Below are positions 12,307-36,047 of a stretch of DNA of 64,000 bases, one piece after another. The stretch is from Candidatus Omnitrophota bacterium (lineage in GTDB: Bacteria > Omnitrophota > Gorgyraeia > Gygaellales > Profunditerraquicolaceae): assembly GCA_041308845.1 (NCBI GenBank), contig JBFZAT010000002.1, forward strand, positions 566 through 64,565, written 5' to 3'. The first letter of the stretch is position 1, and every line of letters begins with the position of its first letter. The position numbers were made by a program, and so were the translations under genes. Below the pieces are notes generated by a model. It made no database searches, had not been told where the DNA came from, and saw only the letters and a program-made list of their open reading frames with translations.

Positions 12307-12378
12307 TTTAGCGGGTCCTGTTTTAGGTGTTTTCTAGCGTTCAGCGCGCTGCGGAAGCACCCAAGCCACCCGCTAAAT
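12307..12378. repeat. ~70-nt imperfect palindromic intergenic repeat, copy A
   Basis: ttagcgggtcctgttttaggtgttttct...cacccaagccacccgctaa. The ends pair (agcgggt/acccgct). Near-identical to the copy at 35979-36047. Confidence 0.7.
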
Positions 12379-12386
12379 TTTTAATA

Positions 12387-13355
12387 ATGCTAAAAATTGG
12401 TAAATTAAAGTTAAAGTCTAATTTAATTCTTTCGCCGATGGCTGGAATTACAGACCTGCCATTTAGGATGCTTTGCCGTAAATTCGGTGCGGAGTTAGCT
12501 TTTGTGGAGATGATCAACTGCCGTTCGATTAGCCATAAAAGCAGGAAAACTAAACATATGTTGTCAAGCACTCCTGGTGATAAACCGCTGGGTATCCAAA
12601 TTCTGGGAGCGGAAGAGCAATATGTTCTGAAGGCTTTGGATGTCTTGAGAGGGTATAAATTTGATCTCTTGGATTTTAATGCCGCTTGCCCGGCAAAGAA
12701 AGTAGTGCGCCGGGGGGAGGGGGCGAGCTTGCTACAGGAACCGAAGAAATTGGTTAAAATATTAAAATTAGTGGTTAAAAACTCCTGGCTCCCGGTAACC
12801 GTTAAAATCCGGGCTGGTTGGGATAAGCATTCGGTTAATGCTAAAGAGGTCGCTCAACTGGCTCAGGACTGCGGAGTTCATGCTTTATTTATTCACGGCC
12901 GGACTAAAATTCAGGCTTATACTGGTCGAGTGGATTACGATATAATTAGAGCAGTGAAAAAAGTTTTAGCTATTCCTTTGATTGCCAGCGGAGATGTTTT
13001 TTCCGGACCATTAGCTGAGAAGATGTTTGATGAAACCGGATGTGACGGGTTGGCGGTAGCCCGAGGCTGCCTGGGAAATCCTTGGATCTTCCAAGAGATT
13101 AACGAATATCTTAAAAACGGTAAAATAATTGAACGTCCTGGGAAAAAAGAGCTGGCTGCGATTATGCAGGAACATCTGAATGCCAGCATTGATTTCTACG
13201 GTGAAAGAAACGGGGTAGTGATCTTCAGGAAATTTTATATCTGGTACACTAAAGGGTTATGCAAGGTCCGCCGTTTAAGAGAGAGGGCTTCAGGGGCTAA
13301 AACCCGCCTGGAGGTAGAAAAGATTATCAGAGAGGTGTTCCCTGGATCTAATTAG
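12387..13355 (+). CDS. dusB: tRNA-dihydrouridine synthase
   Basis: LILSPMAGITDLPFRML and the conserved FMN-binding TIM-barrel blocks. Start taken at the ATG (MLKIGK) after the repeat. Confidence 0.85.
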   Translation: MLKIGKLKLKSNLILSPMAGITDLPFRMLCRKFGAELAFVEMINCRSISHKSRKTKHMLSSTPGDKPLGIQILGAEEQYVLKALDVLRGYKFDLLDFNAACPAKKVVRRGEGASLLQEPKKLVKILKLVVKNSWLPVTVKIRAGWDKHSVNAKEVAQLAQDCGVHALFIHGRTKIQAYTGRVDYDIIRAVKKVLAIPLIASGDVFSGPLAEKMFDETGCDGLAVARGCLGNPWIFQEINEYLKNGKIIERPGKKELAAIMQEHLNASIDFYGERNGVVIFRKFYIWYTKGLCKVRRLRERASGAKTRLEVEKIIREVFPGSN

Positions 13356-13389
13356 TTACGGATTTCAAAATTCTAACCTTTTTAAACAC

Positions 13390-14055
13390 ATGCCGCTGTT
13401 TGACGGAATTGAATATGTCGGGCAGGATGAGGATATGGTCCGCCAATATCGAGCGGTAAGAGAGAATCAGCCCTGCATTATCTTGTCTTTAAATTTTATT
13501 CGTAATGACGAAAAGATTCTTTGGGATGCGGTAGAGGATTTTATAAAGCGTAGTACGATCAGCGCTACTGGAAGTGTGCATGGTGCATATATTTTCGATC
13601 TCCTGACTATTGATATTCACAAAGAGATTAAGACATTTAAACATACAGAGTTATCTAATTTGATTGTGAATACAGCTATTAAGTTGGCTACTGGCCAAAC
13701 CAAGATGATTAAGTATTCATCCGCTTATGCCTTGATCCAAAAAACCGTAGATTTTGAATGGGGCAAAATTAATTTTAAAACCGCGGTGAATGTATTTAAG
13801 GATAAATCGGATTACCTGGATTTGTTGATCAAACAGCTTCTAAAAGATTTTACTTTTTCGCATGATCCGGTAATCCTGCTATTAAATGACTTGAGTCAAA
13901 ATCCTATCTTTAATCTGCAGAATCAAACTCAGCAGTTGCGCTTAAAAAAAGTGATCGCTGATTTAATTCCTCAATCTGTGGAATTTATTCCAGAAATTTA
14001 TATCCAGGATAAAGATGGAGCCAGGGAGCTTCTCTCTGGCACAAAGTTAAGATAA
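13390..14055 (+). CDS. hypothetical protein
   Basis: 221 aa ORF in line with its neighbours; no recognisable motifs. Confidence 0.45.
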   Translation: MPLFDGIEYVGQDEDMVRQYRAVRENQPCIILSLNFIRNDEKILWDAVEDFIKRSTISATGSVHGAYIFDLLTIDIHKEIKTFKHTELSNLIVNTAIKLATGQTKMIKYSSAYALIQKTVDFEWGKINFKTAVNVFKDKSDYLDLLIKQLLKDFTFSHDPVILLLNDLSQNPIFNLQNQTQQLRLKKVIADLIPQSVEFIPEIYIQDKDGARELLSGTKLR

Positions 14056-14072
14056 TATAAATTTGAGAGATA

Positions 14073-14200
14073 CGAGACGTTTTATATAACCATTTGCGCA
14101 GCAAAGGATTAAGAAACAAATAAAGAAAGAGTAAGAAAAAGTAATTGTTTTGTAATCTACTGGCATATAAATGTTTACGTAAAACGTCTTATGTATTTAA
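14073..14200. repeat. copy 2 of the ~117-nt TIR-bounded intergenic element (AGACGTTTTA ... TAAAACGTCT)
   Basis: Perfect 10-bp terminal inverted repeat at 14075-14084 and 14180-14189; internal similarity to 5609-5735. Confidence 0.55.
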
Positions 14201-14407
14201 CAAAAATCCCCGGGAAAGCGCTCCGGGGCTTCTTGTAGGTGATAGGCCTAATAGCTTTCGCTATCGTTCCTAGCCTCCTTGTTTGGGCGTTGCTTGATTG
14301 TAAACAAGTATGCCATATAAATTCCAGGATTTCAAGCCCAGTAAAAATAAATTTTTTATTAATCTAAGATAGAAAGGTTAATTTTTCTATAGTATAATAT
14401 TACCAAA

Positions 14408-16495
14408 ATGTTGACGACATCGATTCAGTACCTTAAAGGTATCGGGCCTAAACGGGCAAAAAGTTTTACCTCCAGAGGAGTTAATACTATCGAGGAATTA
14501 TTATATTATTTCCCGCGTCGCTACGAAGACCGCAGCAATTTCGCCAAGATTTCAGAGCTTAAAGAAAACGGGGTTTATACCATTAAAGCCCAGGTTTTAA
14601 TCGGAGCGCAGCGTAATTCCTGGAGGCGGAATAGGTTTAGCATTACTGAAGCAGCTGTCAGTGATAATTCTGGTAAATTAAGCTGTGTCTGGTTTAATCA
14701 GCCGTATCTAGGCCAATATTTAAAACCAGGAGCACTTCTCATCCTCTATGGCAAGATCGAAGTTTATAACGGTAAACTGCAATTGACTAATCCTGAATAT
14801 GAATTTATGGATGAGGACAATGATGAGGATTCTTTAAATGTCGGCAGGATCGTTCCGGTTTATGCTTTGCCCAGCGGTTTTAGCCAGCGCAGTTTACGCC
14901 GTTTGATTAAAACTGCCCTGGATGAATTTTTACCTAAAATTAATGACCCGTTGCCTTTCGATTTACGCAGCCGGCACAATCTGCTAAATCTGGCACAAAG
15001 TCTGCTAAACATACATTTTCCCCAAGATTTATCTTTGCGTATGTCGGCGCACACGCGTTTAAGTTTCGAAGAATTTTTGTTTTTTCAGCTACCTTTGGTT
15101 TTAAGGAAGCGCAACCGTAAGAATAAGGCCGGGATCAGCCATTTGGCTGACAGAGGATTAGTTAAAGAATTTATTGCTGGTTTGAATTTTGAGCTTACCG
15201 CTGCCCAACAGAAAGCTTTAGAGGAAATCCAAGTGGATATGATCTCTTCTCAAGTCATGCAACGACTTTTGCAGGGTGATGTTGGATCCGGTAAAACCGT
15301 GGTGGCAACCGCCGCTTGTCTTCTAGCTATTCAAAGCGGATATCAGGCAGCTTTGATGGCGCCCACGGAATTACTGGCCAGGCAGCATTATGAGAAAATA
15401 TCCGAGCAATTTAGCCGGCTAACTTTTAACGGAGTTAAATTGCGCTTGGGGTTGTTGGTCGGTCAGGACAAGGGCACGAAAAAAGACAAGATATATCAGC
15501 AAATAAAGGCGGGTAAATTAGATTTAGTGATCGGAACTCACGCCTTGCTGCAGGAGGAGTTACGTTTCAAAAACTTAAGTTTTATTGTGATTGATGAGCA
15601 GCATAAATTTGGAGTCGGGCAGAGAGCGCTTTTACCCCAAAAAGGCAATAATCCCGATGTTTTAATTATGACGGCAACCCCTATTCCGCGTACTTTGGCG
15701 ATTACTTTATATGGCGACCTGGATATTTCGGTAATTAACGAATTGCCCGGCGGCCGACTCCCGATAAAAACTTTGCATTTTAGCCGTAAAGATCAACACA
15801 GAGCTTATGCTCTTCTTAAAGAAGAGCTTAAATATAACCGCCAAGGATATATAATCTATCCAGTGATTGAAGAATCTTACGCTTTGGATTTGGCCGGAGC
15901 TAAAAAAATGTTCACCGAACTAAAAAATGGCGAGTTTAAGGAATTTCGTTTAGGTTTACTTCATGGGAAGTTAAGTCCCTGGGAACAGAATGAGGTTATC
16001 TCCAAGTTCAAAAATAAACAATTAGACCTTTTGGTGGCAACAACCATTTTGGAGGTGGGCATTGACATTCCGAACGCTACTTGTATGATTATTGAGTCTG
16101 CTCAACGTTTTGGTTTGAGTCAATTGCATCAGTTACGCGGGAGAATTGGCCGGGGGAGGCTGCAATCATCTTGCATGCTTATTTCGGATAGCCAAACTCA
16201 AGATTCAGCAGCGCGCCTGGCAGCGATGGTAAGTTCCGGAGACGGATTTCATATTGCTGAAGAGGATCTTAAGATTAGAGGGCCGGGAGAATTTTTTGGA
16301 AACCGCCAGCATGGGTTAGCGGAGCTAAAAATTGCCAATCCGCTTATTCAGATGCAACTGCTTAAAACCGCCCGGGAAGCAGCGATTGGCTTGGTTAATC
16401 AGGATGCCTGTCTGCAAAAGCGCCCGCATCAATTATTAAAAGCTAAGTTACTGCAGAGATTCCCTGAATACGAAAAATTGATGTTGGTAGGATGA
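14408..16495 (+). CDS. recG: ATP-dependent DNA helicase RecG
   Basis: 695 aa; wedge domain; helicase motifs GDVGSGKT (Walker A) and DEQH (motif II); C-terminal TRG motif region. Confidence 0.9.
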   Translation: MLTTSIQYLKGIGPKRAKSFTSRGVNTIEELLYYFPRRYEDRSNFAKISELKENGVYTIKAQVLIGAQRNSWRRNRFSITEAAVSDNSGKLSCVWFNQPYLGQYLKPGALLILYGKIEVYNGKLQLTNPEYEFMDEDNDEDSLNVGRIVPVYALPSGFSQRSLRRLIKTALDEFLPKINDPLPFDLRSRHNLLNLAQSLLNIHFPQDLSLRMSAHTRLSFEEFLFFQLPLVLRKRNRKNKAGISHLADRGLVKEFIAGLNFELTAAQQKALEEIQVDMISSQVMQRLLQGDVGSGKTVVATAACLLAIQSGYQAALMAPTELLARQHYEKISEQFSRLTFNGVKLRLGLLVGQDKGTKKDKIYQQIKAGKLDLVIGTHALLQEELRFKNLSFIVIDEQHKFGVGQRALLPQKGNNPDVLIMTATPIPRTLAITLYGDLDISVINELPGGRLPIKTLHFSRKDQHRAYALLKEELKYNRQGYIIYPVIEESYALDLAGAKKMFTELKNGEFKEFRLGLLHGKLSPWEQNEVISKFKNKQLDLLVATTILEVGIDIPNATCMIIESAQRFGLSQLHQLRGRIGRGRLQSSCMLISDSQTQDSAARLAAMVSSGDGFHIAEEDLKIRGPGEFFGNRQHGLAELKIANPLIQMQLLKTAREAAIGLVNQDACLQKRPHQLLKAKLLQRFPEYEKLMLVG

Positions 16496-16536
16496 GTCAA
16501 GTATTGTTATGGGGCAGTCTTTAGACTAAAATCATC

Positions 16537-17082
16537 ATGAGAATAACTACAGGAAAATACCGTAACCGTAAATTACATATGCCCAAAGGCATACGTCCTA
16601 CTCAGGATAAGGTGCGCAAGGCTTTATTTGATATATTAGGGGATATTGCCGGGTTAACATTTTTAGAACTTTACGCCGGCTCTGGGGCGGTAGGATTAGA
16701 GGCGCTTTCCCGGGGCGCAGCTTGGTTAACCCTGGTTGAATCTAATCATCATTCGGTATTAGCAATAAAGAGGAATATAGCGCTGCTGGATATCAGTACT
16801 TATGATTTATATTATCTTGAAGCTGAAAAAGCGGTTAAGCTGATGAGCCTAGATAAGAAGAATTTTGATATTATATTTATTGATCCACCTTACTCTAGAG
16901 ATATGGCAAAAAAAATCTTGCAAACTCTAGAGGGTTATGATATATTGTCGCCCAATGGTTTGATCATCGTTCAGCATTCCAGACTAGAACAATTGCCCGG
17001 AGCGGGTTTAAATTTTAATTTGGTCAAAGAAGCTAAGTACGGTGATACTTGGCTTTCAATTTTTAGCCACGCCAAAGCGTGA
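16537..17082 (+). CDS. rsmD: 16S rRNA (guanine966-N2)-methyltransferase
   Basis: LELYAGSGAVGLEAL SAM-binding motif and the DPPY catalytic motif. Confidence 0.85.
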   Translation: MRITTGKYRNRKLHMPKGIRPTQDKVRKALFDILGDIAGLTFLELYAGSGAVGLEALSRGAAWLTLVESNHHSVLAIKRNIALLDISTYDLYYLEAEKAVKLMSLDKKNFDIIFIDPPYSRDMAKKILQTLEGYDILSPNGLIIVQHSRLEQLPGAGLNFNLVKEAKYGDTWLSIFSHAKA

Positions 17083-17582
17083 GAAAGAGTAAAGTGTGTC
17101 AGCTTGCTTTATACCCAGGAACATTTGATCCGGTAACTAACGGCCATATTGATTTGATTTGCCGCGCTCGCGAAATATTTTCGGAGGTTATCGTTGCCGT
17201 GGCGCATAATCCCCATAAGAAACCGGTTTTTAGTATTAAAGAAAGAATATCTATGCTCAAACAGGCAGTAGAGGGCATGGAGGGGGTGATGGTAACTCAT
17301 TTTGACGGCTTAGTTGTGGATTTCGCGCATAAGATGAAAGCGAAAGTATTAATCCGCGGATTACGCATGCTTTCAGATTTTGAATATGAGTTTCAAATGG
17401 CTTTGACTAATCGCAAGCTTTCCAGTGATATTGAAACAATTTTTCTTATGCCGCATGAATCTTATAGCTATCTTTCTGCTAAATTAATCAAAGAGACGGC
17501 GGTATTGGGCGCTGATCTCTCTAGTTTTGTTCCGGATTTTGTGGGCCAGGCTTTACAGAAGAAATTACTCAGAAAGCAGTGA
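17079..17582 (+). CDS. coaD: phosphopantetheine adenylyltransferase
   Basis: YPGTFDPVTNGH nucleotidyltransferase (H/T-x-G-H) motif; 167 aa. Confidence 0.9.
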   Translation: MRKSKVCQLALYPGTFDPVTNGHIDLICRAREIFSEVIVAVAHNPHKKPVFSIKERISMLKQAVEGMEGVMVTHFDGLVVDFAHKMKAKVLIRGLRMLSDFEYEFQMALTNRKLSSDIETIFLMPHESYSYLSAKLIKETAVLGADLSSFVPDFVGQALQKKLLRKQ

Positions 17583-17992
17583 AAATAATTATTAATCAGG
17601 TCCCGGCAGAGGGCCTGTATTTAAAAGAAGAGATCGATTCAGCCGGATTAGACCTGGCAACAGACCTAATCAAGTTTCGCTCTCCTTTGAAACTTTCCGC
17701 CCGGATCACCCGAATTACTAATGCTTTAACGGTGGACTTAACCATTCAGGCGGTTATTTTTGCAGATTGTGCACGTTGTTTAAATGAATTTGATTGGGTA
17801 TTCGATAAAGATATTCAGCTGCACTATCCTTTAGAGAGCAGCGATGTTTTTATCGATTTAAAGCCTGAAATCCGAGAAGAAGTAATTTTAGATTACCCAA
17901 TCAAGCCTTTATGTAGCTTAAGCTGCAAAGGTCTTTGTTTAAAATGCGGTAAAAACAAAAACGAAGGAGGATGCAACTGTGGCTCTACCTAA
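17579..17992 (+). CDS. yceD: YceD/DUF177 family protein (large-subunit ribosome accumulation protein)
   Basis: Sits immediately upstream of rpmF in the conserved arrangement; C-terminal CxxC...CxxC cluster. Confidence 0.7.
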   Translation: MKIIINQVPAEGLYLKEEIDSAGLDLATDLIKFRSPLKLSARITRITNALTVDLTIQAVIFADCARCLNEFDWVFDKDIQLHYPLESSDVFIDLKPEIREEVILDYPIKPLCSLSCKGLCLKCGKNKNEGGCNCGST

Positions 17993-18182
17993 ACGAAAAC
18001 ATTCAGCGCAGCGCGGCCGAAAACGCCGTACCCATTGGAAGATTAAAGCAACAAGCTTAACTCCCTGCCCGCAATGCAAACAATTGAAGCTTCCGCACCG
18101 GGTTTGTCTGGTCTGTGGATATTACGCCGGCCGTCAGGTCATCGAGATTAAAGTAAAGGAAAAAAAGAAAAAGTCTCGTTAA
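17979..18182 (+). CDS. rpmF: 50S ribosomal protein L32
   Basis: MALPKRKHSAQRGRKRRTHWK N-terminus and the CPQC...CLVC zinc ribbon. Confidence 0.9.
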   Translation: MALPKRKHSAQRGRKRRTHWKIKATSLTPCPQCKQLKLPHRVCLVCGYYAGRQVIEIKVKEKKKKSR

Positions 18183-18205
18183 TCTTAAAATGAGAAGAAA
18201 GGGCT

Positions 18206-19207
18206 TTGATGAAAATAGTCGTTGATGCCATGGGAGGAGACCATGCTCCCGAGGTAGTCGTAGATGGCAGTTTGGCTGCCGTAAAAGAGTATGGTGTAGA
18301 AGTGATCCTGGTTGGTGATGCGCCTCGGATCCAGTCTCTTTTAAAGAAAGCTAAATACAGCGGTGATCGGATCAGCGTTCAACACGCTACTGAGACTATT
18401 GAAATGTCTGAGTCGGCGGCCATTAGTGTTCGGCGTAAAAGAAATTCTTCGATCGTAGTGGGTTTAAGTTTAGTTAAAGAGGGTAAAGCAGATGCTTTTT
18501 TTAGCGCCGGTAATACCGGAGCGGTAGTTTGCGCAGCCACTTTAGAATTAAGGCTGCTACCGGGGATTGAGCGGCCAGGCATCGGCTTGATTACGCCGTC
18601 TTTAAAAGGGATTTCTTTGATTATTGACGTGGGGGCCAATATCGACCCTAAGCCTACCCAGCTATTGCAATACGGGATTATGGCGGATGCCTATTGTAAA
18701 AATATTTTAAACAAAGTTAATCCCAGCGTGGGCTTGTTGAATATCGGAGAGGAAGAAAAGAAAGGCACGGATTTTATCCGGGAAGCCTACGGATTATTGG
18801 AAAAAAGCAAAATAAATTTCGTCGGTAACGTGGAAGGCAAAGATCTTTTTAGCGGCAAGTGCGATATTATTGTTTGCGATGGTTTCGTGGGGAATGTGGC
18901 TTTAAAGGTTTCCGAGAGTGCGGCAGAAGCCATGCAGACATTTCTAAAACGACATCTTTTAAGCAATATTTGGGGTAAGATTGGTTTGATTTTTATGATC
19001 CCTAGCCTGAAACGTTTTAAGAAAGAAATTGATTACGCCGAGTACGGCGGGGCACTCTTATTAGGGGTAAACGGTGTAGTGATTATTGGTCATGGGCGTT
19101 CCAGTATTAAGGCGATTAAGAATGCGATTCGGGTAGCCAAAGAAGAAGTTGAGCGCCAGGTAAACAGTAAAATTCTAGAAGCCATAAATTTGAGCGGTAA
19201 ACAGTAA
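18206..19207 (+). CDS. plsX: phosphate acyltransferase PlsX
   Basis: IVVDAMGGDHAP motif, 333 aa, upstream of fabH. Confidence 0.9.
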   Translation: MMKIVVDAMGGDHAPEVVVDGSLAAVKEYGVEVILVGDAPRIQSLLKKAKYSGDRISVQHATETIEMSESAAISVRRKRNSSIVVGLSLVKEGKADAFFSAGNTGAVVCAATLELRLLPGIERPGIGLITPSLKGISLIIDVGANIDPKPTQLLQYGIMADAYCKNILNKVNPSVGLLNIGEEEKKGTDFIREAYGLLEKSKINFVGNVEGKDLFSGKCDIIVCDGFVGNVALKVSESAAEAMQTFLKRHLLSNIWGKIGLIFMIPSLKRFKKEIDYAEYGGALLLGVNGVVIIGHGRSSIKAIKNAIRVAKEEVERQVNSKILEAINLSGKQ

Positions 19208-19221
19208 AAATTAAGGTTAAG

Positions 19222-21107: not shown

Positions 21108-21172
21108 GAAGCAGGTTCCTGAATATTGCTTACTATATCCTATCTATTTAAGGCAGTGACAGGGAGGGTACT

Positions 21173-21916: not shown

Positions 21917-22041
21917 AGCAAAGTAAAAGAGGAATACACATCGCGCTAAGCGGATGTCGGGCCGACACTAATTGGATTTGTGTCGGCCAGCGTTAGGTAA
22001 AACATGCGCGGTGTTGTGTCCGTACACAAGGAGGATAAAGA

Positions 22042-22340: not shown

Positions 22341-22351
22341 TTGGTCTAATT

Positions 22352-25412: not shown

Positions 25413-26462
25413 ATGTATAAGATAGCGGTAATTCCCGGAGACGGCACAGGCCCGGAAGTAGTTAATGAAGGTTTAAAAGTTTTAGCTGCCGCCGGGAAGA
25501 AGTTTGGTTTTCAATATGAGGCCAAGAGCTTTGATTTTAGCGGTCGCAGGTACCTGCAGACCGGTAAGCTGGTTGAAGATCGCGATGTTGAGGAATTAAA
25601 AAGATATAATGCCATCTATCTGGGCGCGGTGGGAGATCCGGATGTAAAACCCGGGATTATCGAAACAGGAGTATTGTTGAAATTAAGGTTTGCTCTCGAT
25701 CAGTATATTAACCTCCGGCCGGTTAAGCTCTATAATTCTGCATATTGTCCTTTAAAAGATAAAAATCCTGAAGACATCGATTTTGTAGTGGTGCGTGAAA
25801 ATTCCGAAGGATTGTATAAAGGGATGGGAGAGTTTAGGGATAAAGATACTCCTCAAGAGGTAGCGATCCAGATTTCTTATAATACGCGTAAAGGTGTAGA
25901 GCGGTGTATTCGTTACGCCTTCGAGTGTGCCCGAAAGCGCAATAAAAAGAAAAAGCTTACTCTTTGCGGTAAAACCAATGTTTTGACTTATGCTTGGGAT
26001 CTTTGGCAGCGCACATTTAATGAGGTGGCGGTTGAGTATCCGGACATTACTACGGATTATGCGCACGTGGATGCAACGACCATGTGGTTTGTGAAAAATC
26101 CGGAATGGTTCGATGTAATTGTTACTGATAATTTATTCGGAGATATTATTACTGATTTAGGGGCAATGATCCAGGGAGGGATGGGAATCGCCGCCGGAGG
26201 CAATATTAATCCTCAAGGAGTTTCTATGTTTGAGCCGATCGGAGGCAGTGCTCCTAAGTATACCGGTAAGAATGTAATTAATCCTTTGGCGGCGATCTGC
26301 GCTGCCGGGATGATGCTGGAAAATTTGGGTGAACTAAAAGCTGCTCAGGCAATCGAAACAGCGGTGATCAGGCTGGTAAATAAAGATTTGAAATCCCTAG
26401 CGGCCGGTAAGATGGGTTATTCTACTATCGAAGTAGGTGACTTGGTGGTTAAAAATTTATAA
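25413..26462 (+). CDS. leuB: 3-isopropylmalate dehydrogenase (isocitrate/isopropylmalate DH family)
   Basis: [14 protein letters not shown]-terminus, NLFGDIITD and [11 protein letters not shown] motifs. Confidence 0.8.
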
Positions 26463-26480
26463 TCTATATGCATAATAATT

Positions 26481-26548
26481 TGCACCCCGCGCAGATTGGT
26501 ATTGCGCGGGTGTTTGCTAGGTGGCGAAAAAACACCAAGCCACCCGTT
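26481..26548. repeat. ~70-nt imperfect palindromic intergenic repeat, copy C
   Basis: ...attggtattgcgcgggtgtttg...aaacaccaagccacccgtt. Shares its right end with copies A/B and its attggtattgcg core with copy D. Confidence 0.6.
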
Positions 26549-26593
26549 AAATAAAAATTAAATTTTAATAGTGTGGTCAGGAGGGTAGTATTT

Positions 26594-28356: not shown

Positions 28357-28366
28357 TAAAAATAGT

Positions 28367-28394
28367 TTGACTTTATTTATTAATCTGTTATACT
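28367..28394 (+). promoter_or_regulatory. sigma70-like promoter (TTGACT-16-TATACT) for rplM-rpsI
   Basis: ttgact 28367-28372 and tatact 28389-28394 with 16-nt spacer, ~80 nt upstream of rplM. Confidence 0.4.
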
Positions 28395-28476
28395 TAACAA
28401 TTCTATGAGCTTTCGATTTGGCTCTGCGGTTATTTTGAGGGAAGTCGCAATACAATAATAAAAAGTGAGTTAAGTA

Positions 28477-28914
28477 ATGAAAAAAACATATTCAGCTAAG
28501 CCAGAAGATATCAAAAGAAAGTGGTATATTGTCGATGCTAAAGGGCAGATCCTGGGAAGATTAGCTGCTCAGGTAGCGACTATTCTCAGGGGCAAACATA
28601 AGCCTATTTATACCCCGCATTTAGATACCGGAGACGGCGTGATTGTTATTAACGCTGCTCAGATTAAGGTTACCGGGCGTAAGCTTAAACAAAAAATTTA
28701 CCGCAGGTATTCTGGTTATCCCGGAGGTTTGCGCGAGGTAACTTTGGAAGTATTGTTGGCTAGAAAGCCAGCTACCGTTATACATTTAGCGGTACAAAGA
28801 ATGCTTCCTATTGGGCCTTTAGGCAGAGATCTAATCAAAAAATTAAGAGTTTATGCTGATGCTCAACATGGATTAACCGGCATTAAACCGTTGGTTTTGG
28901 AGGTTAAGAGTTAA
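28477..28914 (+). CDS. rplM: 50S ribosomal protein L13
   Basis: 145 aa; KWYIVDAKGQILGRLA N-terminal signature. Confidence 0.95.
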   Translation: MKKTYSAKPEDIKRKWYIVDAKGQILGRLAAQVATILRGKHKPIYTPHLDTGDGVIVINAAQIKVTGRKLKQKIYRRYSGYPGGLREVTLEVLLARKPATVIHLAVQRMLPIGPLGRDLIKKLRVYADAQHGLTGIKPLVLEVKS

Positions 28915-29310
28915 ATGGGCGAATTAACTAAATATATAGCATTAGGACGACGTAAAGAATCAACAGCTAGAGTAAGTATGGTGGCCGGAATTGGACGCAT
29001 TATAATCAACGGGCGGCCTTTCGAAAAATATTTTTTACGTGAAACTGACCGTATTATTGTTTTACAGCCTTTAGCGCTTACTGAAAGCACAGGTAAATTT
29101 AATATTTCAGCTAAACTTACTGGTGGTGGCCTAACTGGCCAAGCGGGGGCTTTACGTCTGGGTATTTCGCGGGCTCTGTTGATTGCCGATGGTAATTTTA
29201 AAGAAATTTTCCGAAAAAACGGGTATTTGACCCGTGATTCACGTATGAAAGAACGGAAGAAGTATGGCTTAAAAGGAGCACGTAAGCGCTTCCAGTGGAC
29301 TAAACGTTAG
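28915..29310 (+). CDS. rpsI: 30S ribosomal protein S9
   Basis: 131 aa ending KYGLKGARKRFQWTKR. Confidence 0.95.
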   Translation: MGELTKYIALGRRKESTARVSMVAGIGRIIINGRPFEKYFLRETDRIIVLQPLALTESTGKFNISAKLTGGGLTGQAGALRLGISRALLIADGNFKEIFRKNGYLTRDSRMKERKKYGLKGARKRFQWTKR

Positions 29311-29344
29311 GTTTGATAGTTTAAAACTGCATAGTGCATTTCTA

Positions 29345-29375
29345 AAACCCCGCTGTAAGTAGCGGGGTTTTTTTG
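29345..29375 (+). terminator. Rho-independent terminator after rpsI
   Basis: aaaaccccgct-gtaagt-agcggggtttt followed by tttttt. Confidence 0.8.
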
Positions 29376-29410
29376 TGGCTAGAGCTTTTTATTTCCGACG
29401 AGAAAAAACC

Positions 29411-29439
29411 TTGACGGAAGTTTAATTTTATTCTAAGAT
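29411..29439 (+). promoter_or_regulatory. candidate promoter of the arg operon (TTGACG-17-TAAGAT)
   Basis: ttgacg ... taagat; the adjacent AT-rich gataattcaattatta resembles an ARG-box half site. Weak. Confidence 0.3.
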
Positions 29440-29475
29440 AATTCAATTATTAGCTTAAGGCACCCAGGAGGGGTT

Positions 29476-30510
29476 ATGTTAATTAACGTAGCAATAATCG
29501 GGGCGACCGGACATACCGGAGAAGTTTTACTTGAACTTTTACTCGGGCATACTAATGTTAGAATTTGTCATTTGTACAATAGCGGGAGAAATTCTGCTAA
29601 ACCTCAGCTTATTACGGATGTTTTTCCTAAATTCAAAAATCGCCTGGATTTAGTTTGTAAAAAACCGGATTGGACGGAGATTAAAAAAGACTGCGATCTA
29701 GTTTTTTTGGCTCTACCGCATACTGTTTCAATGCAATTTGCACCTAAACTTTTAAGTTTAGGCAAAAAAGTTATTGATTTAAGCGCAGATTACCGGTTAA
29801 AGAATTCAGAAGTTTACAGAAAATTTTATAAAATTTCTCACCAGGATAAAACTAATTTAAAAACAGCAGTTTACGGATTACCGGAATTATACCGGGCTAA
29901 AATTAAGACCGCCAGGCTTTTAGCCAACCCAGGGTGTTATCCTACTTGTGCCATTTTGGCCTTGGCTCCGCTTTTAGCGATGAATTTGGTGGATACAGAT
30001 TCCGTAATTATCGACGCTAAGAGTGGAGTAAGCGGAGCGGGTAAAAAGCTGGAAAAGGAATATTTATTTTCCGAAATCCAGGGTGATTTCCGGGCATATA
30101 AAGTCAACGTGCATCAGCATGCACCGGAAATTAACCAATTACTTTCTAAAATCTCCGGGAAACGAATCGAGGCAATTTTTGTACCACATCTTTTACCCAT
30201 CGAGCGGGGAATTTTGGAAACTATTTATTTAAAAAAATCCAGCAAAGCTAAGTTAAAGACTAGCAGTCTGACCAAATTATATAAAAATTTTTATAAAGGC
30301 GAACCGTTTGTGCGGATTAAGAGTGAAGGTATTTTTCCGCGCATTAAAGATGTGATTAAAACCAATTTTTGCGATATCGGCATTCAGGATTTCGGTCAGA
30401 GGGTTATTGTTATCGGGGCGATTGATAATTTATTAAAAGGTGCCTCTAGTCAGGCAGTGCAGAATATGAATATTATGTATAAGTTGCCGGAAACTACTGG
30501 ATTATTATGA
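29476..30510 (+). CDS. argC: N-acetyl-gamma-glutamyl-phosphate reductase
   Basis: VAIIGATGHTGE NAD-binding motif and active-site Cys context LLANPGCYPT. Confidence 0.9.
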   Translation: MLINVAIIGATGHTGEVLLELLLGHTNVRICHLYNSGRNSAKPQLITDVFPKFKNRLDLVCKKPDWTEIKKDCDLVFLALPHTVSMQFAPKLLSLGKKVIDLSADYRLKNSEVYRKFYKISHQDKTNLKTAVYGLPELYRAKIKTARLLANPGCYPTCAILALAPLLAMNLVDTDSVIIDAKSGVSGAGKKLEKEYLFSEIQGDFRAYKVNVHQHAPEINQLLSKISGKRIEAIFVPHLLPIERGILETIYLKKSSKAKLKTSSLTKLYKNFYKGEPFVRIKSEGIFPRIKDVIKTNFCDIGIQDFGQRVIVIGAIDNLLKGASSQAVQNMNIMYKLPETTGLL

Positions 30511-31643
30511 AAAAAATATTGAATGCTATTTTACCTAAGGGGTTTAAAGCCAATGGCGTGGCCTGTGGATTGAAGAAATCTGGTAAGCCGGATTTAGCTT
30601 TGATTTATTCGAAGGTTCCGGCCCTGGCTTGTGCAAAGTTTACTACCAATAGCATTATTGCCGCTCCTTTGGTAGTTTGTCAAGAACGCCTCAAATCCGG
30701 CAGTAAATTTCGCGCGGTTTTAGTTAATAGCGGAAATGCCAATTGTTTTACCGGTAAACTTGGCATCCGGGATGCCGAAGAATCCTCTGGCTATCTTGCT
30801 CAGGCATTAGGCATTGATAAAAATAGTGTTTTGGTTAATTCCACGGGTATTATCGGGAAGAGATTAGATTTGGGCAAAATTAAATCAGGGATTCCGGAAT
30901 TAGTCTGTGGATTATCCAGTTTCGGTATTCATAAGGCTAAAACTGCCATTATGACCACGGATACTTTTCCTAAAGAAATAAGCCTAAGAATTAAACTAGG
31001 TAATAAAATGGTGCGTATTTGTGGCATCGCCAAAGGTGCCGGAATGATTGCCCCGAATATGGCCACCATGCTCTGTTTTATTATGACAGATGCTTTGATC
31101 GCTAAGCGGGCTTTAAATAAAGTGCTCGCTGCTGCTGTAGATAAATCCTTTAACTGTATTTCTGTTGATGGATGCATGAGCACTAATGATACAGTCCTGG
31201 TTTTGGCTAACGGCGCTGCTGGCAATTCCATTATCTCTTCCGGTGATGATTTAGAAAAGTTTTCTAAAGCCCTGCAATTAATCTGTTTGGTTTTAGCTAA
31301 AATGGTAATTTTGGATGCGGAAGGGGCAACTAAGTTTATCCAGATTGATGTTTATCGGGCCAAGAATGTAACCGAAGCAAAAACAATAGCTTTGCTTATT
31401 GCTAATTCTGTCTTGTTTAAAACCGCGGTTTTCGGAGAAAATCCGAATTTTGGCCGGATCGCTGCGGCGGTAGGGGCAAGCGGATTAGGGATTAAAGAAG
31501 GTCAATTAAAAATCAAACTCGGCACACTAAAAAGCAAGAAGGTTAGGGTAGCGGTTAGCCTATCTCGGGGTAAGGCTAAATGTACAGTTTACACCAATGA
31601 CCTTACTCCGGAGTACGTAAAGATTAATGCCGCTTATAACTAA
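30507..31643 (+). CDS. argJ: bifunctional glutamate N-acetyltransferase/amino-acid acetyltransferase
   Basis: ATMLCFIMTDA autoprocessing-site region (ATML/T) and ArgJ family length. Confidence 0.9.
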   Translation: MKKILNAILPKGFKANGVACGLKKSGKPDLALIYSKVPALACAKFTTNSIIAAPLVVCQERLKSGSKFRAVLVNSGNANCFTGKLGIRDAEESSGYLAQALGIDKNSVLVNSTGIIGKRLDLGKIKSGIPELVCGLSSFGIHKAKTAIMTTDTFPKEISLRIKLGNKMVRICGIAKGAGMIAPNMATMLCFIMTDALIAKRALNKVLAAAVDKSFNCISVDGCMSTNDTVLVLANGAAGNSIISSGDDLEKFSKALQLICLVLAKMVILDAEGATKFIQIDVYRAKNVTEAKTIALLIANSVLFKTAVFGENPNFGRIAAAVGASGLGIKEGQLKIKLGTLKSKKVRVAVSLSRGKAKCTVYTNDLTPEYVKINAAYN

Positions 31644-31674
31644 ACTAATTAGAAGTGGGGGTTAGAAAAGAACA

Positions 31675-32529
31675 ATGAAAGAGGCGATCAGAAAAGCTGA
31701 TGTTTTAATTGAGGCGTTACCTTATATCAAGCGGTTTCATAAAAAGGTAATTGTAATCAAATACGGCGGTAGTATTTTGGGTGATGAAAAAATCCGCAAT
31801 AGTGTCCTAGAGGACATTGTATTTTTAAATTTTATGGGTTTACGCCCGATTTTAGTACACGGAGGCGGTCCGAATATTAGTGAGCGAATGCGTGCAATCG
31901 GTAAGAAGACAGAGTTTGTTGAAGGAATGCGGGTGACCGATGCAGAAACTTTAAAGCTGGTTGAAGAAGAGTTACTAACGTTAAATAAATTAATTATCAA
32001 AGAATTGAGTAGTTTAGGAGCCAAGGCTGTCGGCTTAAATGGTAAAAATGACGGTTTGATCCAGGTTGAAAAAAAGAAAAGCAAGTCGGATATCGGTTTA
32101 GTGGGGCAGATTCAGGGTATTAATACTGAGTTGTTGGAGAGCGAGTTAAAGAAAGATAAAGTTCTAGTGCTTGCGCCATTGGGGAGCGGTAAGGACGGCA
32201 AGACTTATAATGTTAATGCTGATGAAGCAGCTGCTTGGGTGGGTGCGCAGATGCAGGCGGAAAAACTTGTTTTATTAACTAACGTTAAAGGTATTATGCG
32301 TAATCCTGAGGATCCCCATTCGTTTATTTCAACTTTGACAGTAGAGGAGGCCGGAGGATTAATTGCTAATAATATTATTCAGCAGGGAATGATTCCTAAG
32401 GTCAGCGCCTGCGTGGAAGCTCTGCGGGGGGGAGTTAAAAAAACGCACATTATTGATGCGCGGACGCCACATGGGCTTTTGCTTGAGATTTTTACGGATC
32501 AGGGTATCGGAACTGAAATTATTCAATGA
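31675..32529 (+). CDS. argB: acetylglutamate kinase
   Basis: VIKYGGS and ILVHGGGP amino-acid-kinase motifs. Confidence 0.9.
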   Translation: MKEAIRKADVLIEALPYIKRFHKKVIVIKYGGSILGDEKIRNSVLEDIVFLNFMGLRPILVHGGGPNISERMRAIGKKTEFVEGMRVTDAETLKLVEEELLTLNKLIIKELSSLGAKAVGLNGKNDGLIQVEKKKSKSDIGLVGQIQGINTELLESELKKDKVLVLAPLGSGKDGKTYNVNADEAAAWVGAQMQAEKLVLLTNVKGIMRNPEDPHSFISTLTVEEAGGLIANNIIQQGMIPKVSACVEALRGGVKKTHIIDARTPHGLLLEIFTDQGIGTEIIQ

Positions 32530-33722
32530 AGCTAGACGAAATTTTTAAAATTTACCAAGAAAACATTATGCCTACCTATAACAAGACGCCGCTGATTTTT
32601 ACCAAGGGTAAAGGTTCCTGGCTTTGGGATCTTCAAGGCAAGGTTTATCTGGATTTCTTCCCGGGTTGGGGGGTGGGTAATTTAGGGCATTGTTATCCTG
32701 GGGTGATGCAGGGAGTAAGAGATCAAATTAGTAAATTGATATTTATTCCGAATAATTATTACCATCCTTTTCAGGCTAAATTAGCTAAAGAATTAGTGTA
32801 TCTAAGTTTCCCGGGTAAAGTATTTTTTGCTAATTCCGGAGCTGAAGCTAATGAGGCGGCCATTAAATTGGCTAGAAAATTTGGTGCAACCGCTCAGTCG
32901 GGCGGAAGTCAGGGTAGATATGAGATAATCACTTTTGAAAATGCTTTTCACGGCAGGACCTTAGCGGCTTTAGCGGCAACTGGTCAAGAAAAATACCAAA
33001 ATGGTTTTGCGCCGCTGCCGGCAGGATTTAAACAGGTTAAGTTCAATGACCTGGAGGCAGTAAAGCGGGCAATTACCGATAAAACAGTAGCAGTGATGCT
33101 GGAGCTTGTTCAAGGCGAGGGTGGAATTAACCTGGCCCAGCAGGATTTCGTGCTGGGTTTAAGAAAACTTTGTGATGAAAAGAAAATGTTGATGATTATC
33201 GATGAAGTCCAGACCGGGATTGGCCGGACCGCTAGAATGTTCGCTTATCAGCACTATGGGGTTATTCCGGATGTGATGACTTTGGCTAAAGCTTTAGGCG
33301 GCGGTTTACCTATTGGAGCGATGATTGCTAGAAAAGAACTGGGGGATATTCTAACCCCGGGTATGCACGCTTCTACTTTTGGAGGAGGGCCGGTAATCTG
33401 TCGGGCTGCGCTGGGTGTTTTAAGGGGGATACAGAAAGATAAGGTTTTAAATAATTGCCAAAAGATGGGGGAGTATCTTTTAGAAAGATTAATTGTGCTT
33501 AAAAATACTTATCCGGTGATTAAAGAGGTACGCGGGCTGGGCTTAATGCTGGGAGTGGAATTAAATATTGAAGGCAAACAGATTGTACAATCGGCTATGC
33601 AGCGGGGTTTATTGATTAATTGCACACACGATAAGGTCCTTAGATTAATGCCGGCTTTGAATGTAAGTAAAAAAGAAATCGATAAGGCTGTCGATATATT
33701 AAAGGATCTGTTTAAGGTTTAA
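32526..33722 (+). CDS. argD: acetylornithine aminotransferase
   Basis: Class III PLP aminotransferase; IIDEVQTGIGRTA and the Lys-containing TLAKALGGG motif. Confidence 0.85.
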   Translation: MKLDEIFKIYQENIMPTYNKTPLIFTKGKGSWLWDLQGKVYLDFFPGWGVGNLGHCYPGVMQGVRDQISKLIFIPNNYYHPFQAKLAKELVYLSFPGKVFFANSGAEANEAAIKLARKFGATAQSGGSQGRYEIITFENAFHGRTLAALAATGQEKYQNGFAPLPAGFKQVKFNDLEAVKRAITDKTVAVMLELVQGEGGINLAQQDFVLGLRKLCDEKKMLMIIDEVQTGIGRTARMFAYQHYGVIPDVMTLAKALGGGLPIGAMIARKELGDILTPGMHASTFGGGPVICRAALGVLRGIQKDKVLNNCQKMGEYLLERLIVLKNTYPVIKEVRGLGLMLGVELNIEGKQIVQSAMQRGLLINCTHDKVLRLMPALNVSKKEIDKAVDILKDLFKV

Positions 33723-33737
33723 TATCCGGGAGCGAGA

Positions 33738-34688
33738 ATGAAAAAAGATTTAATTTCTATTCGGGACTTAAGTGCTCAAGAAATTGAGGATTTATTTAGT
33801 TTAGCAGTTAATTTAAAAAGGAATAAATCTAAATTCAATCGGGTTCTAGCCGGTAAGACTTTGGCTTTAGTGTTTCAGAAGCCTTCTAATCGTACGCGAG
33901 TATCTTTTGAAGTCGGGATGTATCAATTGGGAGGTAATTCTGTTTATTTGTCTCCTAGTGAAATTAACTTAGGGGTTCGAGAAACAGTCAAAGATGCAGC
34001 CAAAACTATTTCGCGTTATGTCGACGGAATTGTCCTGAGAACCTTTGAACATAAGAATTGTGTAGATATGGCCCAGGCTGCTCAGGTTCCGGTGATTAAT
34101 GGTCTTTCTGATTTTTCGCACCCTTGCCAAGCTTTAGCTGACCTTTTCACTATTGGCGAAAAATTTGCGCGTCTAAACCAATTTTCGCAAAAGGGCAGGA
34201 GATTAAGAGGCTTAACCCTGGCTTATGTCGGCGACGGTAATAATGTTTGCAATTCTTTATTATTTGCTTCGGCTAAAACCGGCATGAATATCGCCGTGGC
34301 TACTCCGGCCGGGTACGCCCCTAATCCCCAGGTGGTCAAGCAAGCTAAAGAGATTGCCGAAGAAACGTTGAGCCAGATAACAATTACTGAAGATCCGTTG
34401 TGCGCAGTTAACGCTGCCAATGTGGTTTATACGGATGTTTGGGCCAGTATGGGCCAGGAAAAGGAAATCAGCCAAAGAAAAATTATCTTTAAAGATTTTC
34501 AGATTAATGCTAGACTTTTAACTAATGCTGCGCCCGGAGTTTTAGTAATGCATTGTTTACCGGCGCATCGCGGAGAAGAGATAACTGACGAAGTCCTGGA
34601 TAGCAAGAATTCCGTAGTTTTCGACCAGGCAGAAAATAGAATGCATGTGCAAAAGGCGATTTTAATTAAATTATTAGGTAGAAATTAA
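33738..34688 (+). CDS. argF: ornithine carbamoyltransferase
   Basis: STRTRVSFE carbamoyl-phosphate-binding motif and the HCLPAHRGEE ornithine-binding motif. Confidence 0.85.
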   Translation: MKKDLISIRDLSAQEIEDLFSLAVNLKRNKSKFNRVLAGKTLALVFQKPSNRTRVSFEVGMYQLGGNSVYLSPSEINLGVRETVKDAAKTISRYVDGIVLRTFEHKNCVDMAQAAQVPVINGLSDFSHPCQALADLFTIGEKFARLNQFSQKGRRLRGLTLAYVGDGNNVCNSLLFASAKTGMNIAVATPAGYAPNPQVVKQAKEIAEETLSQITITEDPLCAVNAANVVYTDVWASMGQEKEISQRKIIFKDFQINARLLTNAAPGVLVMHCLPAHRGEEITDEVLDSKNSVVFDQAENRMHVQKAILIKLLGRN

Positions 34689-34760
34689 CGGGTGATTCTA
34701 TGCACTCGGCGTTAATTGGTATTGCGACGGTGTGGCCTCGTGACCACCAGGACCCGCTAA
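34688..34760. repeat. ~70-nt imperfect palindromic intergenic repeat, copy D (inverted relative to A/B)
   Basis: Ends ...caggacccgctaa, the exact reverse complement of the A/B left end (ttagcgggtcctg). Contains attggtattgcg shared with copy C. Begins at the argF stop codon. Confidence 0.6.
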
Positions 34761-34793
34761 TTTAAGATAATTTTATTTCAATCAGGAGAGAAG

Positions 34794-35975
34794 ATGAAGA
34801 AGGTAGTATTAGCATATTCAGGCGGATTAGATACCTCTTGTATTGTGCGCTGGCTAAAAGAACGGGGCTATGAAGTAATTTGTTTCGTCGCTGACCTTGG
34901 CCAGGGTTTAGGCCAGGGTGAAAATTTCGAAGCTATTGAAAAACGGGCGCTGGCCGCCGGGGCTTCCAAAGTCTACATTCGGGACCTGCAGGAAGAATTT
35001 ATAAGTGATTTTATTATTCCGTCTTTGAAGGCCAATGCGATATATGAAGGTAAATATCTTTTGGCTACAGCATTAGGCCGGCCCTTGATTGCTAAATACC
35101 TGGTGCAGATTGCCCATAAAGAAAAGGCAGGAGCTGTGGCACACGGTTGCACGGGTAAAGGCAATGATCAGGTGAGGCTGGAAGTGGCTGTAGGCATACT
35201 TGATCCGAAATTAGAGATTATCGCTCCGGTCAGGGAATGGGAGTTTAAATCACGGGAAGAGGAGATCGAATACGCGCAGAAACATAATATTCCGATTGAT
35301 GTCACCAAGAAAAAGCCTTATAGCATTGATCGTAATATTTGGGGCATAAGTATTGAGGCGGGTGTACTCGAGAACTTAGAGCAGGAGCCACCCGAAGATG
35401 CCTACATAATTACCAAAAGCCCGACTCACTCTGCCGGTTATCCGCGCTATATCGAAATAACTTTTAGCCGGGGAGTACCGGTGAAAGTTGACGCTAAAGC
35501 GTATAAAATTAAAAATTTAATCAGTTATCTAAATGAAGTTGGGGGGCAGTTTGGAGTAGGTAGAAGCGACCTGGTGGAAAACAGATTGGTGGGGATTAAG
35601 TCCCGGGAGATATATGAGGCCCCGGCTGCTACTATTCTTTACACTGCGCATAAAGAGCTGGAGGCTTTGGTCCTCGACCGGGAGTTGGCGCATTTTAAGG
35701 AGATGATCAGCCTGAAATACGCAGAACTGGTTTATTACGGATTATGGTTTTCCGCTTTAAAAGAAGCCCTGGATGGTTTTGTAAGTAAAACTCAAAAGTT
35801 TGTCAGCGGCACTATCAGATTAAGATTATCTAAAGGTACTTGTGTTGCCGTGGGCAGAAAGTCCGCCAACTCTCTTTATAAAAAAGAGTTGAGTACTTAC
35901 GGCAAAGAAGATAAATTTGATCAAAAACTGGCTGAAGGGTTTATTAAACTTTGGGGTATGCCTTATAAAAGATAG
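34794..35975 (+). CDS. argG: argininosuccinate synthase
   Basis: AYSGGLDTS PP-loop ATP-binding motif; 393 aa. Confidence 0.9.
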   Translation: MKKVVLAYSGGLDTSCIVRWLKERGYEVICFVADLGQGLGQGENFEAIEKRALAAGASKVYIRDLQEEFISDFIIPSLKANAIYEGKYLLATALGRPLIAKYLVQIAHKEKAGAVAHGCTGKGNDQVRLEVAVGILDPKLEIIAPVREWEFKSREEEIEYAQKHNIPIDVTKKKPYSIDRNIWGISIEAGVLENLEQEPPEDAYIITKSPTHSAGYPRYIEITFSRGVPVKVDAKAYKIKNLISYLNEVGGQFGVGRSDLVENRLVGIKSREIYEAPAATILYTAHKELEALVLDRELAHFKEMISLKYAELVYYGLWFSALKEALDGFVSKTQKFVSGTIRLRLSKGTCVAVGRKSANSLYKKELSTYGKEDKFDQKLAEGFIKLWGMPYKR

Positions 35976-35978
35976 TAA

Positions 35979-36047
35979 TTAAGCGGGTCCTGTCTTAGGT
36001 ATTTTCTCGCGCTGACGTTGCTCGAAAACACCCAAGCCACCCGCTTA
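35979..36047. repeat. ~70-nt imperfect palindromic intergenic repeat, copy B
   Basis: ttaagcgggtcctgtcttaggtattttct...cgaaaacacccaagccacccgcttaa; ~85% identical to copy A. Confidence 0.7.

Follow-up and report, generated by a model that had tools for sequence, protein, structure and literature searches.

A previously undescribed hairpin repeat dispersed at operon junctions of Omnitrophota

The 64,000-nucleotide stretch analyzed here (positions 566 to 64,565 of contig JBFZAT010000002.1, Candidatus Omnitrophota bacterium, assembly GCA_041308845.1; hereafter the window) carries at its operon junctions a previously undescribed hairpin repeat, called family 1, of the kind known as dispersed extragenic palindromic repeats. 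Its structure is supported by covariation, in the collections searched it is restricted to Omnitrophota, and intact copies are far more conserved than third-codon positions. The closest analogues are the enterobacterial repetitive intergenic consensus (ERIC), the repetitive extragenic palindromes (REPs) with their mosaic (BIME) and inverted-doublet (REPIN) arrangements, and MITEs (miniature inverted-repeat transposable elements) of the Correia type. The reading favored here, with a probability of about 0.55, is that family 1 is a non-coding DNA palindrome similar to these, dispersed in a clade of Omnitrophota and maintained at the DNA level, that also forms a hairpin in operon mRNA.

Four intergenic sites in the window, A to D, lie just 3' of stop codons between co-directional genes, and the flanks assigned by NCBIfam (pgi|dusB, leuB|asd, argF|argG and argG|argH) agree with the positions and context given in an original prediction made from the sequence alone. 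That prediction had described a single family of four copies. The common ends are real and far beyond chance, CCAAGCCACCCGCT being present three times in the window with at most one mismatch (our own expectation under uniform composition is about 0.02), but two families had been merged, and the sites hold two intact family-1 copies and two chimeric relics, the family-1 unit measuring 54–81 nt. Copy A (12304–12380, plus strand, core AGCGGGT...ACCCGCT at 12310–12374) begins 4 nt past the pgi stop codon (12303–12305) upstream of dusB and is bordered outside the core by the pairing flanks AAATTT/AAATTT. It is identified by its sequence, by its fold and by R1, a covariance model built from 59 family-1 copies (76 bits, E = 4e-20), and it folds with a minimum free energy of -37.9 kcal/mol as RNA (z = -6.6) and with -17.0 kcal/mol as single-stranded DNA. 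Copy D (35976–36051, plus strand, core 35982–36045) begins 6 nt past the argG stop codon (35973–35975) upstream of argH and is supported by the same three kinds of evidence, with an R1 score of 81.1 bits (E = 1e-21) against 32.3 bits on the opposite strand and an RNA minimum free energy of -25.1 kcal/mol (z = -3.9). Copies A and D are 85% identical; the original prediction had assigned this figure to the first two copies, which are only 60% identical.

Site C is a relic antisense to the genes (34687–34758, minus strand), matched by R1 at its termini only (20.4 bits, E = 1e-3). It begins with AACGGGTGA at 34687–34695, the complement of the 3' end of family 1, which overlaps the argF stop codon TAA at 34686–34688, and ends with CAGGACCCGCT at 34748–34758, the complement of the 5' end. 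Nothing of family 1 but the termini is kept, and the interior is replaced by a motif of a different repeat, family 2 (34698–34753, plus strand), which reads GCACTCGGCG-ttaattggtatt-GCGACGGTGT followed by a degenerate second hairpin. Site B, 3' of the leuB stop codon (26460–26462), consists of a family-2 motif (26478–26533, plus strand), with the arms CACCCCGCGC (26483–26492) and GCGCGGGTG (26504–26512) around the loop agattggtatt and again a degenerate second hairpin, and then of the final 24 nt of a family-1 copy (26525–26548, plus strand). This remnant, CGAAAAAACACCAAGCCACCCGTT, differs from CCAAGCCACCCGCT by one mismatch and is marginal by R1 (10.7 bits, E = 0.7). The 33-nt module common to sites B and C belongs to family 2, not family 1, and the word ATTGGTATTGCG (given earlier as attggtattgcg) lies in it at 26495–26506 and 34715–34726, that is in the second and third copies and not, as had been thought, in the third and fourth. 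Similarly, the inverted copy is the third one and not the fourth. The proposal that every copy folds into a long hairpin holds for A and D; relic C folds no better than shuffled sequence (z = -0.2 and -0.9) and site B forms two separate RNA hairpins. Along the window the spacing is irregular, with the intact copies at 12.3 and 36.0 kb and the relics at 26.5 and 34.7 kb.

What does a complete unit look like? Family 1 is a single long imperfect hairpin with the consensus (TTT)AGCGGGT-CCTGT-CT...AG-CC-ACCCGCT(AAA), in which the dots stand for a variable paired stem and loop. The base helix AGCGGGT/ACCCGCT is invariant in sequence and is followed by an asymmetric internal loop, CCTGT opposite CC, above which the upper stem and loop differ among lineages yet always pair, as in TGGGTATTTTC/GAAAACACCCA, TGGCTTGTCC/GGATCAAGCCA or CTGGTTT/AAACCAG. 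The T-run and the A-run on either side lengthen the stem. RNAalifold finds 17 pairs, 7 of them with compensatory double changes. An explicit count gives 93.8% of cells paired, versus 28–51% in slid controls, and 85 cells changed on both sides, versus 19 in shuffles; the observed covariation score was reached by none of 500 shuffles. Three positions outside the core also pair, in 68–95% of the copies. Copies found by R1 include variant ends, namely AACGGG..CCCGTT, GGGGTCCTG..TCACCCC and AGCGGG-CGA-..CC-ACCCGCT, and constant throughout is the signature with the 5' part GGGTCCTG and the 3' part YCACCC, which corresponds to the asymmetric internal loop beside a G:C helix. In a few copies a small hairpin (CTGCCTGCCGGCAGGCAGG or CCCGCCACAGAAATTGGCGGGCAGG) is nested (loci L027 5014–5110 and 7918–7992, L081 3708–3786, and L109 upstream of argG; L numbers designate the loci retrieved from the collections), at the same point between GGGTCC and CTGTCTTGGG, which is the conserved internal loop.

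A scan of one genome per GTDB species with the pattern AGCGGGTCCTG-N30-60-AGCCACCCGCT matched 72 loci. Exact family-1 termini are found in 64 of them, on AT-rich contigs of 33 assemblies (up to 11 contigs from one assembly) labeled Candidatus Omnitrophota/Omnitrophica or "uncultured Planctomycetales", and within these 64 loci R1 finds 80 sites, including variants with altered ends or nested structure. The remaining eight matches (L001, L007, L009, L010, L014, L015, L041 and L060), high in GC and from Actinobacteria and others, are not members, as T/A flanks are missing and GC content and taxonomy speak against it; L001 and L015, at least, appear to match within conserved coding sequence. Viral contigs contained no family-1 copy. 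In Rfam 15 only rRNA exceeded the gathering threshold in the window and no family matched the repeat; a search by E-value with two copies returned nothing but generic hairpin models of miRNA precursors, with scores far under the gathering level, and ARAGORN found no tRNA or tmRNA gene in the window. In the literature no publication was found that matches this repeat or describes palindromic, REP, REPIN, RAYT (REP-associated tyrosine transposase) or MITE repeats in Omnitrophota. A lack of further copies and of conserved secondary structure had been named in the original prediction as what would speak against it; family 1 is present in dozens of genomes, and its structure is conserved with compensatory changes.

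Family 1 is a feature of the space between genes of an operon. Among 67 classifiable sites 58 lie between co-directional genes, six between convergent and three between divergent ones; four more fall in doubtful open reading frames. The copies between co-directional genes are sense in 37 cases and antisense in 21, and the element-sense strand is the G-rich one 64 times and the C-rich one 37 times. R1 gives antisense copies scores as high as those of sense copies. In either orientation the element starts 0–30 nt past the stop codon of the gene transcribed first, and in several cases, including argF in the window, the stop codon (TAG or TAA) is made up of the flanking T and the first two bases of the element. 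With T's before the hairpin and A's after it, an A-run follows on both strands, which is the reverse of an intrinsic terminator. A terminator scan predicted none at sites A, C or D, and an identity as intrinsic terminator is rejected on this ground and for want of a downstream U-tract.

Many of the loci share the gene order of the window, as found by tblastn with the window proteins (65–92% amino-acid identity), and orthologous junctions can be compared. At pgi|dusB the copy is sense in the window, L044 and L068 and antisense in L004, L012 and L061; at argG|argH it is sense in the window, L028, L081, L090 and L098 and antisense in L005, L034, L073 and L101; at argF|argG it is sense in L005, L028, L034, L036 and L039, and the window holds its antisense relic. 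The leuB|asd junction, orthologous to site B, carries two full copies in L069. The strand call is clear, R1 giving for example 87.9 bits on one strand of L073 versus 37.0 bits on the other. After orientation is normalized, copies of different species are 85–100% identical; at pgi|dusB, L068 and L012 have the same sequence (100% identity) in opposite orientation. The third-codon positions of argG, by contrast, are only 46–59% identical to those of the window. At argG|argH both the sense and the antisense copies retain the flank tta...taaacagtaatttt, along with the A...T outer pair and taaacagtaatttt as the spacer downstream, and at argF|argG a compensated AACGGG..CCCGTT variant is common to several species; relic C has this variant too, and relatives of the window carry it there as an intact sense copy. 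Since such site-specific details persist across species and orientation states, the comparison suggests that the site was inherited and that its copy was inverted or replaced in situ, independent insertions being less likely.

Occupancy is far from complete. A metagenome scan with the window ArgG yielded 80 relatives at 80–94% identity, of which 12 carry family 1 at argF|argG (10 sense, 2 antisense) and five at argG|argH (3 sense, 2 antisense). Other arg junctions are tight, with overlapping stop and start codons, or contain decayed copies (L074, L079, L093, L110), truncated ones (L090, L095, L096, L108) reduced to 4–17 nt of one end, copies that another small hairpin interrupts (L081, L109) or different repeat families. 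Family 1 is highly conserved when intact and dispensable at any single site, which is the pattern expected of a population of copies homogenized by copying; selection on many weakly useful sites would also be compatible with it.

How does family 1 compare with known repeats? It departs in at least one tested defining feature from REPs, REPINs, MITEs, integron attC sites, terminators and every Rfam family. The REP/BIME and REPIN–RAYT side of the comparison follows Nunvar 2010 (PMC2817692), Bertels & Rainey 2011 (PMC3116915), Di Nocera 2013 (PMC3733652) and bioRxiv 10.1101/2021.07.10.451892. Like REPs and REPINs, family 1 is GC-rich, multi-copy and extragenic, lies downstream of open reading frames between unidirectional or convergent genes, occurs in both orientations with conserved ends and a variable middle, and persists vertically in lineages of a phylum that also has a RAYT-like gene. 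REPs, however, are palindromes of 20–40 bp with an unpaired GTAG or CGTC tag at one end (PMC3733652), whereas family 1 forms one hairpin of the length given above, and a T precedes AGCGGG in most copies ((T)TTAG), GTAG being found in about 5 of 59 aligned copies. Its ends AGCGGGTCCTGTCT and AGCCACCCGCT are not self-complementary as the short palindromes of a REPIN would be, and it does not flank the single-copy RAYT-like gene, which has REPs and doublets of its own of the type ACACCCG-N-CGGGTGT.

With MITEs the repeat shares terminal inverted repeats, AGCGGGT/ACCCGCT being perfect and the pairing imperfect further inward. Like the Correia/NEMIS elements of Neisseria it is small, forms hairpins co-transcribed with the neighboring genes and is present in many copies that differ in presence or absence between relatives. 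It differs from them in flanks that are complementary instead of direct repeats, in that no autonomous insertion sequence with its ends was found among the loci, and in being kept at orthologous sites across species whose synonymous sites are saturated. ERIC elements (also IRU) are imperfect palindromes of about 127 bp, and orientation-dependent effects on mRNA stability have been reported for them in Yersinia. Family 1 resembles them as a single long imperfect palindrome in transcribed intergenic regions of operons, in either orientation, strongly conserved between species, with compensatory changes in the stem and no known transposase. It is about half as long, of unrelated sequence and from an unrelated phylum, and it has the invariant asymmetric basal loop, the free upper stem and the inverted T-run/A-run flanks, with no TA duplication seen. 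To attC sites it is similar in being an imperfect palindrome of comparable size directly past a stop codon, with a conserved base containing extrahelical bases and a variable terminal structure. An identity as attC is nevertheless rejected: the ends TTTAGC...GCTAAA do not fit the cores RYYYAAC/GTTRRRY, both orientations relative to the genes occur, and the neighbors, biosynthetic housekeeping genes whose order is conserved, form no arrays and include no integrase. The earlier description as REP- or MITE-like is borne out for a dispersed and structured repeat found in both orientations; formal membership in either class does not follow, because most copies lack the GTAG/CGTC tag, the repeat does not flank the RAYT-like gene, no target-site duplication was seen, and the loci yielded no autonomous parent.

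The RAYT-like gene deserves attention of its own. With E. coli RayT as tblastn query an open reading frame of 219 aa was found in L022, 780 nt from a family-1 copy. Its product matches Pfam Y1_Tnp with 39 bits, above the cutoff, and NCBIfam REP_Tyr_transpos with 67.7 bits, below the family cutoff of 80, and has intact HUH (HIH) and Tyr (RYIHLNP) motifs. There are 3696 homologues, many of them labeled Omnitrophota, with 56–82% identity along their full length. The gene is single-copy in each of the 11 distinct contexts, stands in conserved order among housekeeping genes and is flanked on both sides by short palindromes (A)GACACCCG-N-CGGGTGTC, with lineage variants such as CCACCTACGAGGTGG, sometimes as inverted doublets. 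Such palindromes lie at 2471–2485 and 3173–3187 in L022, at 5960–5974 and 6676–6690 in L155, and on either side of the Y1_Tnp gene in L164, L165, L166 and L169–L172; in L169 the inverted doublets form a REPIN-like hairpin. Omnitrophota thus contain a genuine REP–RAYT-like system, no report of which was found in the literature for this phylum, and its cognate repeats are not family 1. In the loci with RAYT-like genes (L022 and L155–L172, about 190 kb) R1 found no family-1 copy except the one in L022. Family 2 resembles an expanded RAYT-flanking palindrome, GACACCCG(GCGC-loop-GCGC)CGGTGTCC, and the family-1 base CGGGT(CCT)GTCT paired with AGCCACCCG resembles the duplex of that palindrome closed at the other end; these likenesses should be taken as leads only. 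The RAYT-like enzyme as mobilizer of family 1 is not supported, the gene being flanked by other palindromes.

How could such a repeat be kept uniform? A process at the DNA level that recognizes the conserved base would make family-1 copies and keep them alike, either by transposition through a folded single strand or by gene conversion between copies, with a putative enzyme acting in trans. With termini that are alike on either strand and with palindromic flanks, a copy could be replaced or inverted in place, which would lead to both orientations at one orthologous junction. Copies that leave the process would decay, become truncated or be overwritten by other families, as may have happened at sites B and C. 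Since the copies lie inside operons, 0–30 nt past stop codons and with no U-tract downstream, transcription is expected to run through them and to place a stable hairpin in the polycistronic mRNA. Such a hairpin could block 3'-exonucleases or affect translation termination and coupling, a secondary effect that may help retention.

Several points weigh against maintenance by such a process. Direct target-site duplications were not seen at family-1 copies, the flanks covarying as inverted complements (TTT..AAA, TTA..TAA, GTT..AAC); a palindromic TA or TTAA duplication is conceivable. Clustering of the open reading frames beside the copies gave housekeeping families and one paralogous small membrane protein but no recurrent transposase, and in about 0.9 Mb of loci no long element or autonomous parent with family-1 ends was found, a search for orphan ends giving only truncated or variant copies. 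A clean pair of filled and empty alleles, or a footprint, could not be defined by BLAST of the flanks, because junction lengths vary continuously and several repeat families occupy them. Moreover, the pattern used to retrieve the loci prescribes both termini, and the constancy of their outermost 11 + 11 nt is in part a product of this selection; real variation is seen in the copies found by the model, that is in L024, L036, the variants of assembly CAYHAI and the argF|argG variant. Occupation of the same junctions by a nearly identical element in spite of saturated synonymous sites also fits purifying selection for a host function, and the roughly 2:1 excess of sense copies hints at a constraint at the level of the RNA or of the strand, a soft statistic as the copies are not independent.

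These last two points belong to an explanation in which family 1 is a host-selected cis-acting RNA element, an inter-cistronic stabilizer, a site of processing or a means of tuning translation termination and coupling, and in which spread is secondary. All copies are placed in transcribed space between cistrons, upstream of the following ribosome-binding site, the hairpin is strong and has covariation behind it, conservation at orthologous junctions is far above that of third-codon positions, sense copies are modestly in excess (37:21 and 64:37), and the lack of terminator geometry lets read-through be expected. This explanation is nevertheless unlikely, given that one orthologous junction holds either orientation in different species and that antisense copies are as intact as sense ones. 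In antisense RNA the asymmetric loop becomes its complement (GG opposite ACAGG), and a single RNA-binding partner could not read both forms. Furthermore, many close relatives have lost the element or keep truncated relics with their genes intact. The role in RNA stability or processing suggested in the original prediction is possible as a side effect, but does not explain both orientations equally intact at the same orthologous junctions. If instead the base is read as a duplex or cruciform by a protein of the host (gyrase, a site-specific recombinase or a nucleoid-associated protein, for instance), upkeep independent of orientation would be accounted for, as would a base that is invariant (GGGTCCTG ... 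YCACCC) below an upper stem free to vary, and an in-place inversion preserving the flanks. In E. coli, gyrase and IHF bind to REP/BIME elements. Such a site for binding or recombination at the DNA level is very improbable, however: there is no protein candidate and no regular spacing in the window, the elements are readily lost in close relatives, cores of the attC type are missing, and housekeeping genes stand in both orientations relative to the element.

It could also be imagined that family 1 is a REPIN-type element moved by the RAYT-like Y1 (HUH) transposase of Omnitrophota, its base duplex mimicking ACACCCG-N-CGGGTGT with the loop at the opposite end. The Y1_Tnp protein of L022 close to a family-1 copy and the single-copy homologues in conserved housekeeping contexts, as known for domesticated RAYTs, would suit this idea, and the flanking palindromes have CACCCG/CGGGTG in common with the family-1 base and even more with family 2. 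It is doubtful all the same. In 11 of 11 contexts the gene is flanked by its own palindromes or doublets and never by family 1, the approximately 190 kb around these genes contain the single copy of L022, the family-1 ends are not themselves palindromes as those of a REPIN are, and most copies have no GTAG tag. The likeness of the base duplex extends over about 9 bp with an indel and could be due to chance, and opposite orientations in the same syntenic, presumably same-replichore, context do not suit a strictly strand-specific Y1 insertion. A variant of this idea, equally doubtful, is that family 1 represents a novel architecture among repeats dependent on a Y1 transposase, an "inside-out" relative of the Omnitrophota RAYT palindrome, with the CACCCG/CGGGTG duplex closed at the other end, which a domesticated RAYT-like enzyme would keep uniform over long periods and which could flip in place owing to ends that are alike on either strand; each operon junction would then be a two-state hairpin whose orientation alters mRNA structure.

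Whichever of these holds, Omnitrophota are an uncultivated phylum of very small cells, and no description of their non-coding DNA was found in the literature. Family 1 can be detected by its covariance model and marks operon junctions in many species. It poses a puzzle, as near-identical copies sit at orthologous junctions of genomes with almost saturated synonymous sites and yet point in either direction, a uniformity that needs a homogenizing enzyme or selection on a DNA hairpin. Closely related populations that differ in nothing but whether, or in which direction, a stable hairpin lies 4–6 nt past a stop codon provide a natural experiment in which an effect on operon expression can be tested. 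The model can also clean gene calls, as programs run start or stop codons into the hairpin and may mis-start genes there: a mechanical list of open reading frames starts dusB at the GTG 12327 inside hairpin A, and the NCBIfam DusB alignment starts at the ATG 12387, the region concerned being 12327–12386.

Family 2, to which both relics of the window are fused, has the motif GCACCCCGCGC-loop-GCGCGGGTGT. Alignment A4 gives the reading GGCACCC(C/G)(G/A)CGC, a conserved loop TnATTGG(A/T)ATT and GCG(C/T)(C/G)GGTGTCC, which form a covarying hairpin of 10 bp, followed by a hairpin of 4–5 bp, the 3' arm of which usually coincides with GGAGG, the Shine-Dalgarno sequence of the gene that follows. The corresponding covariance model, R2, gives site B 65.5 bits and site C 53.6 bits, both sites being part of the alignment on which it was trained. 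In relatives, R2 hits the arg loci 16 times, each time on the gene strand; copies lie in L074 (3739–3794), L079 (3682–3735), L089 (3681–3736 and 3895–3950), L092 (3691–3746), L093 (three copies), L145 (1120–1175) and L005 (3933–3988). Family 2 may control translation, or it may be a REP akin to the RAYT-flanking palindromes. In L078 (about 3679–3912), L089 (3681–3790) and L093 (3679–3790) a family-2 hairpin past the argG stop codon is followed by a second copy of the last approximately 40 nt of the argG coding sequence (GGGTTTATTAAGCTTTGGGGGATGCCTTATAAGCGATAA), as if an insertion into the 3' end of the gene had restored or duplicated that end.

The arg junctions collect several unrelated repeat families. 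A third one, long palindromes GGGGACGGTTCT...AGAACCGTCCCC, and a fourth one, TAGGGACTGTCCC..., are found at arg junctions of relatives (L028 at about 2750–2850 and 1400–1500, L039 at 7390–7480, and around argG in L081, L082, L086, L095, L101 and L107). Assembly CAYHAI contains three paralogous genes for small hydrophobic proteins with the common C-terminus PKVKEQFK (L069 2406–3014, L050 834–1731, L058 5178–5791), each with a variant family-1 copy in sense upstream and a standard copy in antisense downstream, which looks like a cassette. The unit in L069 sits in the leuB|asd junction, where the window holds only a relic.

Within the window a scan with R1 found no further family-1 copy of note. 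A mini-hairpin, TTAGCGG-tcgatt-CCGCTA, with the outer bases of family 1 lies at 54994–55012 within the first codons of the open reading frame 54979–56031 and is probably due to chance (12.7 bits, E = 0.19). The window starts with the 3' end of a 23S rRNA gene (1–106) and a 5S rRNA gene (353–469). All credible open reading frames of at least 80 aa are on the plus strand and the GC skew is +0.12 to +0.18 throughout; with the genes all on one strand and the skew strongly positive, the window as a whole is probably leading-strand DNA of one replichore.

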